Origin: Escherichia coli
GTDB taxonomy: Bacteria > Pseudomonadota > Gammaproteobacteria > Enterobacterales > Enterobacteriaceae
Reading direction: 5' to 3' (one strand)
NCBI GenBank assembly: GCA_009729775.1
Contig: GCA_009729775.1_4081.1
Length of the DNA stretch: 64,000 nt
A program made the position numbers and the translations under genes. Positions 2,852 to 56,721 of this stretch are shown piece by piece (the first letter of the stretch is position 1; each line of letters starts with the position of its first letter). A model generated the notes under the pieces. It saw only the letters and a program-made list of their open reading frames with translations. It was not told the DNA's origin and did not search any database.

Positions 2852-3781
2852 TTATACAGCCATCGGTGCTTTAATTGTTGGCATTGGATTGTAATTCACT
2901 AATTTGAAAGAATCCATTGTGAAATCTTCAATATTAGTAATTGTAGGATCAAGCCATAATTCAGGTAATTCACGAGGTTTTCTCTGTAGTTGTTCTTTTA
3001 CTTGTTCAACGTGGTTTTTATAAATGTGGCAATCACCACCATTCCAAATAAATTCTCCAACATCTAAACCAGTAATTTGTGCAATCATATGAGTTAGTAG
3101 TGAATAACTACTGATATTAAATGGAACTCCCAAAAATAGATCAGCGGATCTTTGATGTAGAATGCAGCTTAGTTTCCCTTGTACTACACAAAATTGTACA
3201 AAGCTATGACAAGGTGGCAACGTCATATCATCAAGCTCACCAACGTTCCATGCACTTAGAATATGGCGACGACCATATGGATCGGACTTTATACCATTGA
3301 TTAGTTCCTGTAATTGGTCAGTTGTACGTTTCATAACAACACCATGTGAACCAGTATAATCGATAACTTTGTATCCTTTATCTTTTAATTCTTGAATTTC
3401 TTCAGTACTGGAACTAAATTTATAATCTTCCCATTCACGCCATTGCTTACCATACACTGGACCTAACTCACCATCAGTATAACCAAGAGCAACGCCTTGA
3501 TTTAGGTAATTATCTGTCCAAATAGTTTTCTTTTCTGTATCACGAGTTCCATGCAAAATTTCACAAAGGCGACGCTCATCATGGGAACCTTCAATAAACC
3601 ATAGTAATTCTGAAGTCATTGCTTTCCAAGCTAGACGTTTTGTCGTCACTGCTGGGAAACCATCTTTAAGGTCAAAACGCATTTGTTGACCGATAAGTTT
3701 GATTGTTCCAACACCAGTACGGTCAACGCTTTCTACGCCTTCATCTAGAATTTTTTGATATAGTTCTTGTAGTTGTTTCAT
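2852..3781 (-). CDS. thyA: thymidylate synthase
   Basis: 309 aa; active-site motif LPPCHSFVQF and overall ThyA-like sequence; uninterrupted (no intron). Confidence 0.93.
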   Translation of the reverse strand: MKQLQELYQKILDEGVESVDRTGVGTIKLIGQQMRFDLKDGFPAVTTKRLAWKAMTSELLWFIEGSHDERRLCEILHGTRDTEKKTIWTDNYLNQGVALGYTDGELGPVYGKQWREWEDYKFSSSTEEIQELKDKGYKVIDYTGSHGVVMKRTTDQLQELINGIKSDPYGRRHILSAWNVGELDDMTLPPCHSFVQFCVVQGKLSCILHQRSADLFLGVPFNISSYSLLTHMIAQITGLDVGEFIWNGGDCHIYKNHVEQVKEQLQRKPRELPELWLDPTITNIEDFTMDSFKLVNYNPMPTIKAPMAV

Positions 3782-4374
3782 TATTCTTCCTTGAAAAATG
3801 TAATAAAATGTTCCATATGTTTTTCTGTGGCATTGCGTGAACCAATACCAGTCCAGTTACCATGTGGTGCTGGAACGACGAATGTTTGTGTGAACTCTTT
3901 CAGTACTGTATCGAAATAAAATACTGAACGTGAATTCATATCATAACAATAAATTTCAGGATTTTCAACTGAATCCATATACATCTGTACTGCCCATGCA
4001 GTACCACCACTTACCTTAGTTGGTGATGTGATATTTGCAATACAATATATTCTTTCTGTATTAAGTATCTGATAACTATTCCTTGCAAGTAAGTTGTAAA
4101 CATAAGAACCTGGCTTTGGTACTTTTCGCTGCAACGAGTAACATGCAATGTTTAGTTGATTTAATATAGAAATATCAGATAGAATATTGGATGGTATTTC
4201 TAATATAGTACTTTCATCTACACTATGCTCATGACCTTTGAATGAAAAATTAATAACTTCAAATCCATTATTTTTTGCATAGATAGAAAAAAGGCGGTCA
4301 GCACCTGCTGCCCCGCCACTAAAACATACATTAGATAAACCTTTAATTGCTTCATCTAATTCATTCTTTTTCAT
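3781..4374 (-). CDS. hypothetical protein, possible SLOG/YpsA-like nucleotide-binding fold
   Basis: 197 aa; Gly-rich motif CFSGGAAGADRL near N-terminus resembling Rossmann-type SLOG motif; assignment weak. Confidence 0.5.
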   Translation of the reverse strand: MKKNELDEAIKGLSNVCFSGGAAGADRLFSIYAKNNGFEVINFSFKGHEHSVDESTILEIPSNILSDISILNQLNIACYSLQRKVPKPGSYVYNLLARNSYQILNTERIYCIANITSPTKVSGGTAWAVQMYMDSVENPEIYCYDMNSRSVFYFDTVLKEFTQTFVVPAPHGNWTGIGSRNATEKHMEHFITFFKEE

Positions 4375-30544: not shown

Positions 30545-30769
30545 TTAATCGTTATCATCATCCAATGCGTCACGGTAAACATAATAAACATGTGCACCTA
30601 GCAAAGCAATAAGTACAATAAAGACTAACCAGAATGGTACAAAATGCAGTACTAGAGAAAATGCCAGTACTGTAATAACCATTACAACTGAACTGAAAAT
30701 AAGACGGACTGCTTTTTCAAATCCAGATAGTAAATTTTTAAAGATTTTTTTCATAAATGAATCAACCAT
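30545..30769 (-). CDS. small membrane protein with two TM segments and acidic C-terminus (holin-like features)
   Basis: 74 aa; two hydrophobic stretches and DALDDDND tail; holin role is speculative. Confidence 0.45.
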   Translation of the reverse strand: MVDSFMKKIFKNLLSGFEKAVRLIFSSVVMVITVLAFSLVLHFVPFWLVFIVLIALLGAHVYYVYRDALDDDND

Positions 30770-35860: not shown

Positions 35861-35912
35861 TTATTTTCTCCAAAAAAAAGGACTTGAATACTCAAGTCCC
35901 TATAATATCATA

Positions 35913-36524
35913 TCAATCATGTTTATTCAATTTCTTCTGTTCTTTTTTCAAAGCTTTCATATGACGACCAAACTCTCGAACATGCCATAGATGATCAGTT
36001 TCCCATAATTCTTGACGTAACCTACGTTCTTCTAGTAGTTTCGACTTGTCAATGTTATTTTTCTTTTTTTGTACATTAAAGAAATTATTCATATGTTCTT
36101 GGAGAAGATTACGACCTTTAACTTTCTCAAGAAACTCATCAACTGTTTCAGTTTTATTCGAACGTAGTTGATTACATCTGGAGCACATAGTATTAAAGTT
36201 TGACTCTAAATCAGGTCCACCCTTAGATGCCAGATGATTATGGTCAACTGTCATTAAAACTTCATAAAGACCACATACAGCATATACATTTAAATGTGGT
36301 TTACCATATACTGGATCAGAACATAATGAACGTTCAATGCGTACTTCAGTAGCTTCAATCCCACATGCCACGCATTTTGGATTCTTAATAAATGTAAGAA
36401 CTTTTTGTGGGAAATATCGAAAAGTAATACCATTTAAAGTGTAGCGTTTCATCTTAGTACTTCGTTGATTTAATTCGTCAAGAAGTGATAATTTGGTCGT
36501 ATAGTAAACATGATATTTGTTCAT
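35913..36524 (-). CDS. HNH homing endonuclease
   Basis: HNH motif VDHNHLASKGG...N and Cys pairs (CVACG, CSRCN); track ORF extends to 36569 but Met16 avoids overlap with upstream gene. Confidence 0.8.
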   Translation of the reverse strand: MNKYHVYYTTKLSLLDELNQRSTKMKRYTLNGITFRYFPQKVLTFIKNPKCVACGIEATEVRIERSLCSDPVYGKPHLNVYAVCGLYEVLMTVDHNHLASKGGPDLESNFNTMCSRCNQLRSNKTETVDEFLEKVKGRNLLQEHMNNFFNVQKKKNNIDKSKLLEERRLRQELWETDHLWHVREFGRHMKALKKEQKKLNKHD

Positions 36525-36525
36525 T

Positions 36526-36834
36526 TTATTCCTTGATATTGATTTTAATATCTTTACCTTGTAAATCACGAATAGTTTTAATTAATGCATCATGTTTTAA
36601 AGCACATTCGTTGTATACTGCATCCCAACGAGTAAGTACTTTAAGAATTTCTGCACCATCATAACCTTTAAAACCATTTTTGTCAATCATAATTTTTTGT
36701 GGTAGAGGTGTATCATCATCACATCTTTCTAACAGAATTTCTTGTTTAATTGGTGCAGGGGATTGTAGTTTTACTTGTTCTGCACATCCACTTATAATTA
36801 AAAAAGAAATAAACGGAACTAATAATTTTTTCAT
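36526..36834 (-). CDS. lipoprotein, o-spanin candidate
   Basis: 102 aa; signal peptide with lipobox IISGC; Pro-containing mature region; ATGA overlap with upstream i-spanin candidate. Confidence 0.45.
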   Translation of the reverse strand: MKKLLVPFISFLIISGCAEQVKLQSPAPIKQEILLERCDDDTPLPQKIMIDKNGFKGYDGAEILKVLTRWDAVYNECALKHDALIKTIRDLQGKDIKINIKE

Positions 36835-37205
36835 TTGAATTTATTCCTCGCAGCTTGAGAATTTTGTTTTAGTTCATTCAGTACTTTTACACCATCTTCA
36901 TCTAAACATACATTCTTATAAACTTCACGTTCTACAATAAAAGGAACTTTTGTTTCAATAACTTTAGCATTATCTTCCATGATTTTTTTAGTTTCAAGGT
37001 AATTTTTTGCATTTTCTTGTTGCATTTTATCTAAGGCGGTATCAACTTTTTTAGCTATTTGTTGCTCTATGCTTTGTTGATAGCCACTGTAATAAGTATT
37101 AGCTTCCCAGCCAGCATAAGCTGAACCGCCAATCAATAATACAAAAGAAATTGGTTTCCAAAATGGAATAAGAATTTTTGAAACAATTATTTCTAACATA
37201 CTCAT
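36831..37205 (-). CDS. type-II membrane protein, i-spanin candidate
   Basis: 124 aa; single N-terminal TM segment then charged coiled-coil-like periplasmic region; late-promoter motif and TAGGAG SD upstream. Confidence 0.45.
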   Translation of the reverse strand: MSMLEIIVSKILIPFWKPISFVLLIGGSAYAGWEANTYYSGYQQSIEQQIAKKVDTALDKMQQENAKNYLETKKIMEDNAKVIETKVPFIVEREVYKNVCLDEDGVKVLNELKQNSQAARNKFK

Positions 37206-37258: not shown

Positions 37259-37678
37259 TTACAACATTTTTTGAATATGTTCTGCTAGTTCATACAGCTT
37301 AGTTTCATTATTCTCGAACTTTTCATCAACTTGAACATTGAATTTTTCTTCTAGTTCCATTACCATTTCAATCCAATCAAGCCAATCAAAATGGAATTTT
37401 TCTTCGACTTCCAATTTAGTAAGATTGAAGTTCGCTGATACATCATTCTCTGATGTATCACAATAACGAGTAGTGATGAATTTGACAATTTCTTTTTCAA
37501 CATCGTTTAATTCACGAGTTTGATATTCGGGCTGAAGATACCACCACTCTCCCTTATTAATAGATTCCAATTCTTGTTTGATTTCATGCATTACTTTATA
37601 ACGGTCAGTACTTTTATGAATAGAATTGACTTCTTGATTCAATACATGTAGTGCATTTTTAATACGTTCATTTAACAT
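37259..37678 (-). CDS. acyl-carrier-protein-like domain protein lacking the phosphopantetheine serine
   Basis: 139 aa; C-terminal FDWLDWIEMVMELEEKF resembles ACP DSLDTVELVMALEEEF with Ser replaced by Trp. Confidence 0.55.
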   Translation of the reverse strand: MLNERIKNALHVLNQEVNSIHKSTDRYKVMHEIKQELESINKGEWWYLQPEYQTRELNDVEKEIVKFITTRYCDTSENDVSANFNLTKLEVEEKFHFDWLDWIEMVMELEEKFNVQVDEKFENNETKLYELAEHIQKML

Positions 37679-37697
37679 TTTATCACCTTATAAAAAA

Positions 37698-37721
37698 AGA
37701 GAACTCCATATGAAGTTCTCT
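37698..37721 (-). terminator. rho-independent terminator after 929-aa gene
   Basis: Perfect 8-bp stem AGAGAACT/AGTTCTCT, 8-nt loop, followed on minus strand by TTTTTTT. Confidence 0.6.
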
Positions 37722-37752
37722 AATTATACATAATTACTTTTTCTATGTCAAG

Positions 37753-40542
37753 TTATAAATCACGGAAACGATTTGGTGTGTTTAAACGATACATTGAGTA
37801 CAATCCCAATCCACGCATAATCTCACCTGCCCAGAAACCAAAAAACATACCATTATCAGTACCTTCTCTGACTGCTGGACTCCATGAACCATTCATTGGA
37901 GAACCTGGACTTACAATAACATAGTTCTTTTGAAGTTCGAGAACTAAGTTATCAGCGAGTGTTGTTAGACCTTCTATTTTACATCCAGCCAATCCAGCAG
38001 CACAAGCCCCAGCTAACCACAACCCACACATATGACCTGTAAAGTCCCAATCTGGACCTTCAACTGTGCCATCTTTATTGAAGATTGTTGGTGAACGACC
38101 ATCATTATCTTTTTGAAATTGAATTAAAAAGTGAATCCAATTCTCACAAAATTCAACAAGATCTGCTGGTGGTTCAATTCCTCTCTCTGCGAGTTCTTGC
38201 CATGCTCTGGCAGCCCCAAAGAACGCACGTGGTTCATACCCACTCCATGCTTGATCACCCCAATGTAGCATAGTAAATGTATCTGGTTCACCATATTTTA
38301 AGTTATCCCAGCGGTTCCAAACATATGCTTGTGCACATGGACCAACAGTACCGAATTGTTGAGTAAACCATGTTTGAGAATCTTTCATAAAGCTTAACAT
38401 GTTGCCTAAACGTGTGTTATCAACTGGTTGGTCTTTAAAACAATATATCACTGGATACTGATAACCAGGATAAGGCAAACCACGCCAACCTGAATACTGA
38501 TTCGCATACGGGTCAGTGATGTTAGAAAATGGTATTGTTCCTGGAGTGTAATGCAATGAGTTTAACAAATAATCTTTGATTACACAATCCCCTAACTGTG
38601 CAGTATAAGGTGATTCACCTGCAATTGTTATTGAAAATGTCATGGTATAGTCATCACCGTCAGCATCCGTATATAATTCTGGAATGTCATTAATACAATA
38701 CCAATCAATTATTGCAGCAACGCCATCTACTGGGGTTGTATCAGGTAAAATAGTAATATCTTCTAGCTCACTATAAACTGGTGCATCTGGTCTTGGGTCA
38801 GAACTTGGATGATTTGGCTGATACCCAGATAAACGTAATGTATCAGAACTTAGTGTGATAGTAGTCCATTCCCCGTGTGTTGCAGGAATCATCCACCACC
38901 ATCTCCAACCATTATCATCTATAATTCGTATATTATAATCATCTTCATATGAACGATATGTGAAAGATTTAACTTCAGACTTATTTGTTGCTAATAACCA
39001 AAATCCAATAACAGCACCATCATCTTCACCACAAACCAACTGATTAATTGTATCGCGTCTTGTGATTAATATATCAGTACTATATAACATTTCGGACGTA
39101 GCTGCACCATAAGGAACAACAATTCTACTATCAGCAATTATATAAGGGGAACCATCTGCTTTCTTTTCTCTAACAAATGCACTTAACGGTGTTAATGAAT
39201 GTGTGATATTTTGGTCTTTACTTTCTGGTAAGCCGCAACGATAACGAACAACATCATGGTCATTTTTTGTTTTTGACAATTCCAGTACTGGTTTAAATGA
39301 TAACGGTTTACCATCATCGCACACGCCACCATAGTCAACTAGCAATTTTGAATCAGCATTTACCCTGAACCAAATAGCTTGTTGCTCCATAGTACTCTGT
39401 GCACTTTGGTCTTGTCTGATAGTAATGTATCCTAACGAATTTCTACCAAACTTAGCAATAGCATCACTTGGATAAAAATATTCATAGGAAATACCATCAG
39501 TGAATGGTGTGGTTACAATTGTACTTTGTCTGAAAAATTTATCTCTGGAGTCGATATCACCATAAGCATAGCATGTGAGTAGTGAACATTTCCAACCCAA
39601 ATAATGTTTTCTTTCTTTAGTTATTTTATATAACAAATACGAAGCATCACTAAACCATAATTCTGCATCTGATGCGTTATCAGCAAATTCTAAATCAATT
39701 GGAACATGAAGTGGGCGGTTGTGTTGCATTTCATTTCGTTGAATTATTACACCACCATATTCTACTGGTTGACGATTAGCAAAATTTAATTTATATACAC
39801 CATTAATTGTTGTATTCTTTAATTGAACAGTTCCTTTTTCAGATTCGTCAAAACCTTCTGCTAAAATATTACCATCCCAGTCGATTTTTCTACCCATGAA
39901 ATCAATAATCCAGTCAACATCATATTGTTCACCTGGTGTATCCCAATCAACACTACCATCTGGTAATAAAGCTTTTACTGACGCATTTATTTGGTTCCAT
40001 GCTAAAGCACCTTTGAATGCAAATGTCACTTTATCCAAGAACTGACCATAATATGGTGCACCATGTGGTATTTTGCATTGACCATTAGTAAATGTAAATT
40101 CTACTCCCTTGAAACCACCATGTGTGGGCCAGCCATCATCAGCTAAAGGCCAGTTAGCCAATATAGGTTCTTTTGCATTAACTATCCAGTTACATTGTAG
40201 CGGTGTAGGTGGATCTGGTAATTCACGTCCAGCATAAAAGTACTGATGATATGCGTCCCAATACCACTTTGCCTTATCTAAAAACAATGGATCATTTGTA
40301 GCCAGATATGCATAAATGTATCCTAAAATTAATAGACTTTGACCTTCTGTTGTCCCGTCACCGTTTGGTTGACCTTCCATTGCAGAATAGTTAATAAAAT
40401 GGCGGTTGTTCGCCAAAACACCCTGATTGTTCACCACATAATGCTGTACTGTTGGATCTATAGTATCACCAGTATTTCTTTCAATAAATTTGTGATGCCC
40501 ATAAAGAAGTTGTACAATATTATCAATATTATTGTTTAACAT
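37753..40542 (-). CDS. large Trp-rich protein (929 aa), possible virion-associated hydrolase or fibre component
   Basis: Long ORF, W/Y/G-rich; no motif confidently recognised. Confidence 0.55.
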   Translation of the reverse strand: MLNNNIDNIVQLLYGHHKFIERNTGDTIDPTVQHYVVNNQGVLANNRHFINYSAMEGQPNGDGTTEGQSLLILGYIYAYLATNDPLFLDKAKWYWDAYHQYFYAGRELPDPPTPLQCNWIVNAKEPILANWPLADDGWPTHGGFKGVEFTFTNGQCKIPHGAPYYGQFLDKVTFAFKGALAWNQINASVKALLPDGSVDWDTPGEQYDVDWIIDFMGRKIDWDGNILAEGFDESEKGTVQLKNTTINGVYKLNFANRQPVEYGGVIIQRNEMQHNRPLHVPIDLEFADNASDAELWFSDASYLLYKITKERKHYLGWKCSLLTCYAYGDIDSRDKFFRQSTIVTTPFTDGISYEYFYPSDAIAKFGRNSLGYITIRQDQSAQSTMEQQAIWFRVNADSKLLVDYGGVCDDGKPLSFKPVLELSKTKNDHDVVRYRCGLPESKDQNITHSLTPLSAFVREKKADGSPYIIADSRIVVPYGAATSEMLYSTDILITRRDTINQLVCGEDDGAVIGFWLLATNKSEVKSFTYRSYEDDYNIRIIDDNGWRWWWMIPATHGEWTTITLSSDTLRLSGYQPNHPSSDPRPDAPVYSELEDITILPDTTPVDGVAAIIDWYCINDIPELYTDADGDDYTMTFSITIAGESPYTAQLGDCVIKDYLLNSLHYTPGTIPFSNITDPYANQYSGWRGLPYPGYQYPVIYCFKDQPVDNTRLGNMLSFMKDSQTWFTQQFGTVGPCAQAYVWNRWDNLKYGEPDTFTMLHWGDQAWSGYEPRAFFGAARAWQELAERGIEPPADLVEFCENWIHFLIQFQKDNDGRSPTIFNKDGTVEGPDWDFTGHMCGLWLAGACAAGLAGCKIEGLTTLADNLVLELQKNYVIVSPGSPMNGSWSPAVREGTDNGMFFGFWAGEIMRGLGLYSMYRLNTPNRFRDL

Positions 40543-40543
40543 A

Positions 40544-41080
40544 TCATACTCCTGCTCTAATTAATGCACCGTACCATGTAACTCCTTTATCATATGTTTC
40601 TAATGAAATAATATCTTTTTCACCAATTTCATAAGAAAGAACAACTGGTCTATTATATGACCATTTAACATTTGAACCCCAATTAACGAGGTTAGACCCT
40701 GTTTGCTGAGTTAATAGGATAGTAATTGAATAAACTTCAGTAGGAGCAGAACCAATAGCAATAGTGGTATTTCTATCAGATAAATTAATATTAAAAACTG
40801 TATTACCTGATAGGGGATTAATTAAAATATTATTAGAACTCAATACATTATATAACTTGTTACTAGCACTATCATACAATGTTACCCATTCTGTTTCATG
40901 ATTCTCATTAGTAGCTTTAGCTTTTATTTTTACATTATTTTCGGAAGAAGTCATTCCAGTCCAGCCAGAAATAATAAAAGAACTGTTTTTATTTGTTCCA
41001 AATGATGCAATTACCGAATCACTAAGAGAACTATCTTCACCGTCAATAGATCCGAGTACTGACAATGTTAAAACCATCAT
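40544..41080 (-). CDS. fibre-like S/T/N-rich protein (178 aa), possibly 3' part of a frameshifted gene
   Basis: No SD before ATG 41080; upstream ORF 41043..41243 ends inside an A5 run one frame away. Confidence 0.5.
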   Translation of the reverse strand: MMVLTLSVLGSIDGEDSSLSDSVIASFGTNKNSSFIISGWTGMTSSENNVKIKAKATNENHETEWVTLYDSASNKLYNVLSSNNILINPLSGNTVFNINLSDRNTTIAIGSAPTEVYSITILLTQQTGSNLVNWGSNVKWSYNRPVVLSYEIGEKDIISLETYDKGVTWYGALIRAGV

Positions 41081-42881: not shown

Positions 42882-43391
42882 TTAACCACCATACTTTGAC
42901 TTGTATGTTTCAAGTGATAAAGATATACGATTTTGCTTTTTAATTCTTTCATCAATATCCTTTGAATTCTTCACACTTCGGTATACGTCAGCTAATAAAT
43001 TATAATCTTCTTTATTTGAGCTATGCTGTGTCCAACCTATGTCTGTTTTAATACGAACACTTGCTTTATTTGACGAGTAAAAGAAACTGAAACCATTTGA
43101 CCCATCAAAAATATCAAAAGTATCTACCCAATCACCATAAGGAAAACTCATTGGGACTGACTCGTGGTCGATTGTGATATCCGATAAATTTTTTGAACAG
43201 TACTTCGCAAAGTGATAAACGATTGGATCACATTTTGATAATTCGTATTTGTATTCAATGATAGTTTTTCTATTAGCATCATTGATAGCATATTCTTTTA
43301 TCAATGGACTTTTTTTGATGATAAGAGTCCATAGAAACGATTCTAATCCGGTTTCATCAACTTTTTGTTTCTTTTTGAAAAATGAAATCAT
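42882..43391 (-). CDS. small-protein paralog family member 3 (169 aa)
   Basis: Shares block xxD(N/D)DR(K/R)xxI(E/D)xKYxLSK with 43388..43909 and 43916..44482. Confidence 0.5.
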   Translation of the reverse strand: MISFFKKKQKVDETGLESFLWTLIIKKSPLIKEYAINDANRKTIIEYKYELSKCDPIVYHFAKYCSKNLSDITIDHESVPMSFPYGDWVDTFDIFDGSNGFSFFYSSNKASVRIKTDIGWTQHSSNKEDYNLLADVYRSVKNSKDIDERIKKQNRISLSLETYKSKYGG

Positions 43392-43909
43392 TTATATAAA
43401 CCCTTAATTTTCTGTCTATTATGTATATCATTTTGCTGGATTTTCAATTTAGTAAGGTTGTTTCTTACACCTTCAACTCCACGCATTATTTGTAACATAA
43501 TTAGTGATTCGTCATATGTTAGTACATTGCTATTATTATCGATATATACTTTCACTCCACTTTCAAGATAATCATTTTCTTTGGAGTTAAAGTTTCTAAT
43601 AACAAACTTAACGCCATTTGATGTATCACTGAAAACATATCGTTCCGCACCGTAGAATGTTTTTCCACGAAATAAACCGCCGTCTTCCCACTTCCAACGA
43701 CTAGATTCATAATCATTAACGTAATCAATGATTAAAGAAAGTAAAGGATGTTTGCTCAATTTATATTTTGCATCTAACAGGATACGTCTATCATTATCTG
43801 TGGTAATAATATCCTTTAGTGAGTAGCTTTTAGATATAATTTTAAAGATAATTTCATGCCAAATTAAAGTACTGTTTTGTTTTCCAACTGATCCAAAAAA
43901 CATATCCAT
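43388..43909 (-). CDS. small-protein paralog family member 2 (173 aa)
   Basis: Paralog block TDNDRRILLDAKYKLSK; SxRWKWEDGG. Confidence 0.5.
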   Translation of the reverse strand: MDMFFGSVGKQNSTLIWHEIIFKIISKSYSLKDIITTDNDRRILLDAKYKLSKHPLLSLIIDYVNDYESSRWKWEDGGLFRGKTFYGAERYVFSDTSNGVKFVIRNFNSKENDYLESGVKVYIDNNSNVLTYDESLIMLQIMRGVEGVRNNLTKLKIQQNDIHNRQKIKGLYK

Positions 43910-43915
43910 TCCTCA

Positions 43916-44482
43916 TTAGTATAAATCAGTAATGTCTTTGTATGCATTAATCTGTTTTTGTTGTAATGAAAGTTCATTGAGTTTAGTTACCATTTTATCT
44001 ACACCAACACGTGTATAGAAAATAATAAATGAATCTAAATTGCCTAGAGTAATTCTTGAACTGAAATTTGAAAGTTTTCTTGCATAAACATAAATTTCTT
44101 CTTCACTTGGTAAACGTTTCTCAATCGGCCAGCTTTCCACACCATTCGGCTCATAATCGATTTCAAATTCAACTCCCATCACTGTGTCTTGAATGCGATC
44201 CGTATATGAACCACCGTAAAAATACTCTCTTGGTTTGGATCTCCAACGAGGACTAAATGGGTCAGTTGCGTATTCTTTTACAAATTTGTAAAAGGACATT
44301 TTACTGAGCATATACTTCATCTCAATTAGTGCTTTGCGGTCATCATCAGTTTTAAACTCTGCTTTTAGCGATGGACTTTTACACAGTAACTTAACTAAAT
44401 TGTTGTACATCTTTAATGTACGTTGTTCTTTCATTTCTTTGATTTTGTGACGTTTTGGTGGTGGTAATAAAGATTTGACCAT
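43916..44482 (-). CDS. small-protein paralog family member 1 (188 aa)
   Basis: Paralog block TDDDRKALIEMKYMLSK; SPRWRSKPRE; AGGAGG SD. Confidence 0.5.
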   Translation of the reverse strand: MVKSLLPPPKRHKIKEMKEQRTLKMYNNLVKLLCKSPSLKAEFKTDDDRKALIEMKYMLSKMSFYKFVKEYATDPFSPRWRSKPREYFYGGSYTDRIQDTVMGVEFEIDYEPNGVESWPIEKRLPSEEEIYVYARKLSNFSSRITLGNLDSFIIFYTRVGVDKMVTKLNELSLQQKQINAYKDITDLY

Positions 44483-56309: not shown

Positions 56310-56476
56310 AATTTATAACCCATTACAGGTTTGGTATGATCCGGTTCGTAAGACTTTTCAGTACTGAACCCTCTGAAATTACCACGACCTGGATTCGGGC
56401 AAGCCATTCCTTGTACTGAATGCTTACCCTTATCTTTGCCACAATTTTTACATTTGTAGTCAATTACTTCTTTCAT
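56306..56476 (-). CDS. small zinc-ribbon-like ORF (56 aa), translationally coupled on both sides
   Basis: CKNC...C...C pattern; AAGGA SD; ATGA overlaps with both flanking genes; below track cut-off. Confidence 0.45.
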   Translation of the reverse strand: MKEVIDYKCKNCGKDKGKHSVQGMACPNPGRGNFRGFSTEKSYEPDHTKPVMGYKL

Positions 56477-56721
56477 TGTGCATCCTTCGGAACAGTATTA
56501 AGACGTTTGCGATTCACAATCTTCCTGCACATGAGGTTAAGATCTTGCCCATGACGCATAGTATGACATGCGTATAGTGTTCCTTGATGATTTAGTTTTG
56601 TTAAACCTTGACGGATGATTTCAGCATCCATCTCATCAACTTTAGGAGCACAACCACAGAGAATAATGGATACAAATATTGTTAATGTAATGAATATATT
56701 TTTCATGATATTTTTTCTCAT
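56473..56721 (-). CDS. lipoprotein-like small secreted protein (82 aa)
   Basis: Signal peptide with lipobox-like ILCGC. Confidence 0.45.
   Translation of the reverse strand: MRKNIMKNIFITLTIFVSIILCGCAPKVDEMDAEIIRQGLTKLNHQGTLYACHTMRHGQDLNLMCRKIVNRKRLNTVPKDAQ

Follow-up and report, generated by a model that had tools for sequence, protein, structure and literature searches.

A jumbo-phage acyl carrier protein look-alike without the phosphopantetheine serine that most likely acts as a binding module

Acyl carrier protein (ACP) is among the most connected of bacterial proteins, and its fold is normally tied to the phosphopantetheine arm; most of the ACPs that serve as structural subunits keep the serine and insert an acyl-phosphopantetheine arm into their partner. 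To our knowledge, an ACP fold kept for binding alone has so far been established mainly in apicomplexan mitochondria. In the mitochondrial ACP (mACP) of Plasmodium falciparum, Phe113 stands where the serine would be and no cofactor is carried, and its F113A variant no longer co-purified with Isd11; the homologues of Toxoplasma have Cys or Gly at the serine site (PMC8547962). Among phages, the ACP gene has been remarked to be rare in genomes and to be placed near the spanin (PMC7760394). Both the annotated ACP homologues of RaK2-like phages and the cofactor-independent ACPs of apicomplexans are already known; a literature search found no description of the hairpin domain, the recurrent loss of serine or the invariant spanin linkage that are reported below.

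We analysed a stretch of DNA of 64,000 nucleotides (the window), in which the region of interest is 97% identical to the Asteriusvirus jumbo coliphages 121Q, PBECO4, G17, Sharanji and phAPEC6. Compared with E. coli AcpP (PF00550/PF14573, TIGR00517), the phage protein encoded there has Trp in place of Ser36 and scores below the curated cut-offs. It is also extended at the N-terminus by 58 residues, which include a conserved hairpin, and its loop I is five residues longer.

A two-domain protein of RaK2-like jumbo phages

The gene occupies positions 37259..37678 on the minus strand and encodes a 139-aa homologue of 121Q gp510 and phAPEC6 gp313c, as assigned from the open reading frame and from a full-length match to PHROG 18343, a family with a function-less label (E=7.9e-61, with residues 2-139 aligned to positions 1-138 of a 138-position profile). 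A strong ribosome-binding site, AAGGTGAT, was read directly from the sequence at 37682..37689 (minus strand), with a 3-nt gap (37679-37681) to the ATG. The product is acidic, with a pI of 4.8, and none of the marks of a phage lysis protein (transmembrane segment, lipobox or muralytic domain) was found in it: its maximum 19-residue hydropathy is 0.06, and it gave neither a lipobox nor an enzyme-domain match. A role as a DNA mimic, which the acidity might have suggested, was rejected because this pI is ordinary for the ACP fold and nothing else spoke in its support. A search of all stop-to-stop segments of the 64-kb window with the family HMM and with AcpP (phmmer) revealed no second ACP-like ORF. 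The annotation of 121Q gp510 is 'hypothetical protein', and close relatives have received the automated names 'acyl carrier protein', 'acpP', 'D-alanyl carrier protein 1' and 'carrier domain-containing protein'.

The preliminary description of this gene held that its C-terminal 80 residues resemble an ACP, and profile, PDB and model comparisons all bear this out at the level of the fold. Residues 59-138 (37265..37504, minus strand) form the four-helix bundle of the ACP/PP-binding superfamily in the AlphaFold model, in Foldseek comparisons and in profile searches. As a single sequence, the protein matched Pfam PP-binding_2 weakly and under the gathering score (E=2.6e-4, 21.6 bits against a cut-off of 32), the PHROG ACP families at 6e-7 and 4e-6, and PDB ACPs at about 1e-3, and BLASTP aligned 31 residues of helix II to E. 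coli AcpP at 45% identity. With the family profile as query, homology to ACPs is detectable, AcpP being reached in the PDB at 5e-12, and PF00550 was matched by 9 of 19 family members. The TIGR00517 score, 22.8 bits against a threshold of 70.45, places the protein below curated functional ACPs. Judged by these comparisons, the C-terminal domain has a type-II (AcpP-like) acyl carrier protein as its ancestor, and the Toxoplasma structure 3ce7 is among its best structural and PDB matches.

The N-terminal portion of this protein is a helical hairpin (residues 4-41, with helices at 4-18 and 23-41; 37556..37669, minus strand), modelled at a pLDDT of 86-93 and recovered in the A2/A3/A4 alignments. It bears a family signature, S-x-[DE]-R-Y, at residues 23-27, it is the best-conserved part of the protein, and it has no counterpart in host ACP. 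The hairpin is connected to the ACP domain through a flexible linker of lower model confidence (pLDDT 62-73; pTM of the whole model 0.61), so that the arrangement of the two domains is uncertain.

PHROG 18343 is small and restricted to RaK2-like jumbo phages. An exhaustive profile search of 1.8 billion representatives returned 27 matches, of which about 16 have both domains in full; ordinary ACPs entered the same search from E of about 3e-4. The named members belong to Asteriusvirus, Alcyoneusvirus (RaK2, K64-1, Muenster), Mimasvirus (GAP32, CBB, XbC2) and Eneladusvirus (Serratia BF, fHe-Yen9-03/04, pEa_SNUABM). The window protein has all the features of the family, namely the full-length profile match, the hairpin with its signature, the ACP-like domain and the position next to the spanin genes. 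Two marginal matches, whose contexts were unrelated or too short, were not counted as members: P0050, which lies beside PARP, NUDIX and NMNAT-like genes, and P0043 (E=3e-4; L022 73-903, marine metagenomes), in which Ala replaces the serine, two transmembrane segments follow at the C-terminus, EAD11 (effector-associated domain) is weakly matched and a BrnT toxin gene adjoins.

Some database records of the family were irregular. GAP32_159 appears in its record as an ACP of 84 aa with the start at 3663 of its locus (L017). Like its CBB counterpart, the open frame 3501-3917 encodes a full 138-aa protein with hairpin and ACP domain, so that the N-terminal domain has probably been left out by the annotated start. 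The copies in Salmonella phage SD-15_S21 (P0003), P0030 and H43-H45 are either frameshifted near the 3′ end (giving a 192-aa product) or cover 83-98% of the query. These sit in shorter genomes (310-326 kb) and may stem from indels introduced in sequencing or assembly, or else from genuine decay.

Recurrent loss of the serine under purifying selection

In the alignments, the codon TGG at 37382..37384 (minus strand) encodes Trp99, which takes the place of the serine to which phosphopantetheine is attached (Ser36 in E. coli AcpP); this confirms the earlier reading that the DSL motif at the N-terminus of helix II has become DWL. A second TGG codon, at 37373..37375 (minus strand), encodes Trp102, which corresponds to AcpP Thr39 and does not vary within the sub-clade that has repeatedly lost the serine. 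The helix-II N-terminus of the 139-aa protein contains no Ser or Thr that could serve as a substitute acceptor. Because Trp replaces the phosphopantetheine serine, the protein of this phage should carry no acyl group.

Across the family, the serine column is occupied by S, W, T, N, R, E, D or K. Trp is found in every inspected sequence of the 121Q-like and EC.P1-like phages; serine is kept in A4, ph0011, some metagenomic relatives and all Mimasvirus and Eneladusvirus members; JNE01-like phages have N or R, the RaK2 group has T, and other metagenomic clades have E, D or K. When the column was mapped by Fitch parsimony onto a neighbour-joining tree of 22 representatives, 12 of which have S and 10 another residue (W, W, N, T, E, D, D, K, D, D; the R of P0029 lies outside this count), at least seven changes were required; for the family at large the minimum is put at six to seven. 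Apart from P0036, every member without the serine has Trp at the +3 position (D-x-x-D-W). D35 (AcpP numbering) is invariant, the equivalents of D38, M44 and E47 are nearly so, and the acidic residues of helix II are kept in the window protein as D98, D101, E104, E110 and E111. The forms with Trp, Thr, Asn, Asp, Glu or Lys lack the serine, so the names 'acyl carrier protein', 'acpP' and 'D-alanyl carrier protein 1' would imply a function that is impossible for them. In A4 and ph0011, where the DSL motif is intact, host AcpS might yet modify the protein, and function could therefore differ between members.

Loss of the serine could also mean that the Trp form is a pseudogene in decay, or a carrier that still functions with the cofactor attached elsewhere, and in favour of this there are Ser-bearing relatives, some with a perfect DSLD motif, as well as the frameshifted or truncated copies in some Salmonella-phage records. 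However, the two Trp-bearing lineages represented by the window and EC.P1, with 72% protein identity, differ by a dS of 0.78 at a dN/dS of 0.215 (0.13 in the hairpin and 0.31 in the ACP domain), and within Asteriusvirus dN/dS is lowest in the hairpin (0.09-0.13), with 0.26-0.31 in the ACP domain. By these rates, the Trp-form gene is under purifying selection and is not decaying. Moreover, Trp is constant throughout the 121Q-like and EC.P1-like sequences, no Ser or Thr stands ready at the start of helix II to take over, and the defective copies, being in the shorter records, may be assembly errors; we therefore consider both versions of this explanation highly improbable. The protein combines a replaced serine (Trp99) with retention under selection (dN/dS 0.2), as do phosphopantetheine-independent ACPs of the apicomplexan mACP type. 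The preliminary description's proposal of a non-acylated ACP-fold protein is accordingly well supported, since the fold is that of an ACP, the sole acceptor position is Trp, the column varies freely across the family and the gene is under purifying selection.

A further possibility, raised in the preliminary description as a mimic that could interfere with host ACP partners, is that the protein is a decoy of host ACP, a permanently apo look-alike that would fill the ACP sites of AcpS, PlsB, LpxA/LpxD or Fab enzymes and so throttle host lipid and envelope synthesis. Helix II lends itself to this explanation, as it shares 10 of 20 positions with E. coli AcpP. For AcpS to recognise E. coli ACP, D35, E41 and E47/E48 are needed (bioRxiv 10.1101/2025.01.28.635281), and these contact residues are retained as D98, E104 and E110/E111. 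On the other hand, the domain as a whole is no nearer to enterobacterial AcpP than to the ACPs of Bacillus, Thermotoga or Plasmodium, with about 22% identity to E. coli ACP in Foldseek alignments; E47 is gone from the RaK2-type members, in which L37 and V40 are altered as well; and the most constrained part of the protein is the hairpin, for which host ACP has no equivalent. The genomic setting also speaks against a decoy, as no lipid-metabolism genes lie nearby and the constant association is with spanin genes. Taken together, these points make it unlikely that mimicry of host ACP is what the protein is for.

Spanin linkage, transcription signals and virion content

The contexts of the relatives were gathered by exact-protein look-ups and tblastn, covering Asteriusvirus, Alcyoneusvirus, Mimasvirus, Eneladusvirus and six metagenomic contigs. 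At each of these loci, the ACP-like gene lies directly upstream of an i-/o-spanin pair, usually followed downstream of the o-spanin by an HNH endonuclease and then a DUF7325 gene. In the window, the next gene downstream encodes the i-spanin with an N-terminal transmembrane segment (36831..37205, minus strand; from ORF, hydropathy and 121Q synteny); the o-spanin gene (36526..36834, minus strand; lipobox ISGC) overlaps its end by 4 nt, and the HNH endonuclease (35913..36524, minus strand; from ORF, PHROG and 121Q annotation) is the last gene of the apparent transcription unit. The mechanically called HNH ORF is longer (35913-36569, minus strand, GTG start, 218 aa), and the PHROG match and the 121Q annotation favour the ATG at 36524 (203 aa), one base past the o-spanin stop.

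The upstream side is more variable. A tail-fibre module with genes of 178 and 929 aa (37753-41080, minus strand) precedes the ACP-like gene in the window, and such a module separates RlaP from the ACP-like gene in 121Q-like phages, A4 and JNE01 but is missing in ph0011 and EC.P1. The RlaP nucleotidyltransferase gene comes immediately before the ACP-like gene in EC.P1 and two metagenomic contigs, and in RaK2, Mimasvirus and Eneladusvirus this place is taken by a gene of about 187 aa without assigned function, whose end overlaps the ACP-like start. In ph0011, a stretch similar to the 3′ end of the gene for the 929-aa protein persists together with the promoter/terminator cassette described below (L007 2862-3001), which points to deletion of the tail-fibre module, and the module may be a swappable host-range cassette. 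Upstream of RlaP in the window are three tandem paralogues of 169, 173 and 188 aa (42882-44482, minus strand; PHROG 18641/7868); other genera have similar small genes between RlaP and the ACP-like gene.

Unlike bacterial type-II ACP, the phage gene has no FAS, PKS or PPTase genes near it in the 64-kb window, nor NRPS or acyltransferase genes; its neighbours encode RlaP, tail proteins, the spanins, HNH and unassigned proteins. Neighbouring small proteins were considered as PPTase or acyltransferase partners and set aside, as Pfam and PHROG gave only families without known function.

The four-gene unit of ACP-like protein, i-spanin, o-spanin and HNH is delimited by a promoter and bounding terminators. 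A sigma-70-type promoter-like site, TTGACA-17-TATAAT (12/12; 37723..37751, minus strand), lies just past the stop of the 929-aa tail gene and is kept in 121Q and JNE01 (12/12), ph0011 (11/12) and A4 (10/12). An intrinsic-terminator-like hairpin of 10 bp followed by a T7 run (37698..37721, minus strand) begins 2 nt past the -10 hexamer, and it is kept in 121Q, A4, ph0011 and JNE01 with sequence changes in both arms. A second terminator-like hairpin (35878..35901, minus strand) closes the unit after HNH. Since the upstream hairpin starts 2 nt past the -10, the promoter's own transcript would be without most of the 5′ arm and so would escape the terminator; the element could thus stop upstream transcripts and pass its own. 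The consensus promoter would also fit early expression, as might be expected if the protein were a decoy of host ACP. A literature search for transcriptomic data on Asteriusvirus and RaK2 phages found none.

The invariant spanin adjacency raises the possibility of an accessory to the lysis module or the envelope machinery, in which an acidic cytoplasmic factor would bind a membrane lysis protein (for example a charged holin tail, in the manner of T4 RIII) and tune lysis timing, or would work with the spanins. The wider surroundings form a loose lysis neighbourhood with a rI.-1-like gene, a 74-aa ORF with two TMDs and a LysM lysozyme. Against this, the i-spanin is almost without a cytoplasmic part, and what it has is not basic; no holin has been identified in these phages; and we know of no ACP-fold regulator of lysis. 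Conserved order within one phage lineage is, moreover, weak evidence for function, and the spanin synteny could reflect common descent of the gene order without any link in function, so that a role in lysis seems doubtful to us. The 74-aa ORF (30545-30769, minus strand), which sits between the spanins and the LysM lysozyme, corresponds by position to 121Q gp525 and has a hydrophobic C-terminal half with apparently two TMDs; it is a holin candidate. Elsewhere in the window, an 82-aa ORF at 56473-56721 (minus strand) has a lipoprotein-like signal (ILCGC).

With tail genes directly upstream (37753-41080), a factor for virion or tail-fibre assembly also had to be weighed. A Ser-type homologue of Eneladusvirus, a 15.6-kDa 'putative ACP', was detected by mass spectrometry with 3-5 peptides in three Erwinia phage preparations. 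However, the ACP-like protein is absent from the 62-protein virion proteome of phAPEC6, in which the neighbouring gp314c and gp315c are present, and the available text of the RaK2 supplementary table does not name ORF009. The o-spanin of CBB (L018 4355-4669) and the i-spanin of XbC2 (L021 3982-4350) bear the label 'structural protein', which may hint at membrane contaminants in virion preparations: if these labels stem from virion mass spectrometry, such preparations carry membrane proteins over, and this would caution against reading the Eneladusvirus detection as virion membership. Because the tail genes are not conserved neighbours, being non-adjacent in ph0011, EC.P1, RaK2 and other genera, and because a terminator separates them from the ACP-like gene in the window, we regard an assembly role as very unlikely.

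A binding module without a cofactor, and its relation to known ACPs

The jumbo-phage ACP look-alike most likely acts as a binding module. The serine has been swapped repeatedly, the acidic helix II and the hairpin have been kept, and the gene is under purifying selection, which argues that the function retained would be binding and not carrying; these sequence patterns indicate that the function of the family, at least in the clade with Trp at +3, would be independent of phosphopantetheine. Since Plasmodium Phe113 provides a precedent and 3ce7 is among the best matches, docking through helix II is proposed, and a soluble, two-domain, cofactor-independent ACP-fold module that docks in this way is the reading we consider probable. 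The protein would be made in the cell as the first gene product of a unit with two spanin genes; its helix-II face would dock on a partner protein, with W99 and W102 exposed where the cofactor arm would otherwise emerge, and the amphipathic hairpin might dimerise or give a second contact. Candidate partners would be ACP-binding host enzymes or envelope and lysis proteins of phage or host. The occurrence of W, D, K and T (also E and N) at the site suggests that the side chain is simply unconstrained, which weakens the idea of Trp99 as a plug that mimics the cofactor arm.

A bolder version of the binding module is a cofactor-free phage effector, in which the ACP recognition helix and the tryptophans would clamp either a host ACP-dependent enzyme of envelope-lipid synthesis, so that membrane or LPS synthesis would stop, or else a cytoplasmic tail belonging to the lysis machinery, and would thereby couple envelope biogenesis to the spanin lysis step in RaK2-like jumbo phages. 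We think this quite unlikely in its full form. If a lysis protein or a client of host ACP turned out to be the partner, the family would represent a new mechanism of host takeover or lysis control in jumbo phages. In any case, a serine shed many times under selection constitutes a natural experiment in which the ACP fold appears keepable for binding alone.

Several known systems resemble the phage protein in part. The RaK2-like 'acyl carrier proteins' (GAP32 gp159, CBB gp163, Serratia BF gp158, fHe-Yen9-04 g153 and pEa_SNUABM) are true homologues, with the same two domains and the same position upstream of the spanins, but they keep LDSLD, are without Trp at +3 and have higher ACP scores than the window protein. 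Structural-subunit ACPs, such as SDAP of mitochondrial complex I, the AcpM of EmbA-EmbB-AcpM and of MmpS5L5-AcpM, the ACP of Ycf2-FtsHi and trypanosome mt-SAF32, are without the hairpin extension. Apo-ACP, when it acts as an inhibitor in E. coli, is likewise a cofactor-less ACP that binds client enzymes, but it is the host's own protein and does so when overproduced. No LYR family match was found for the window protein (Pfam, E<=10) or for the 19 members (E<=0.01), the hairpin included. The closest analogue would be the mitochondrial ACP of Plasmodium, which by analogy offers both an aromatic residue in place of the serine and cofactor-independent binding. The apicomplexan mACP, however, is a eukaryotic organelle protein whose partner is a LYR-motif protein of the Fe-S machinery, whereas the serine site of the phage family is variable rather than fixed as aromatic, and T. 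gondii 3ce7 has Cys there.
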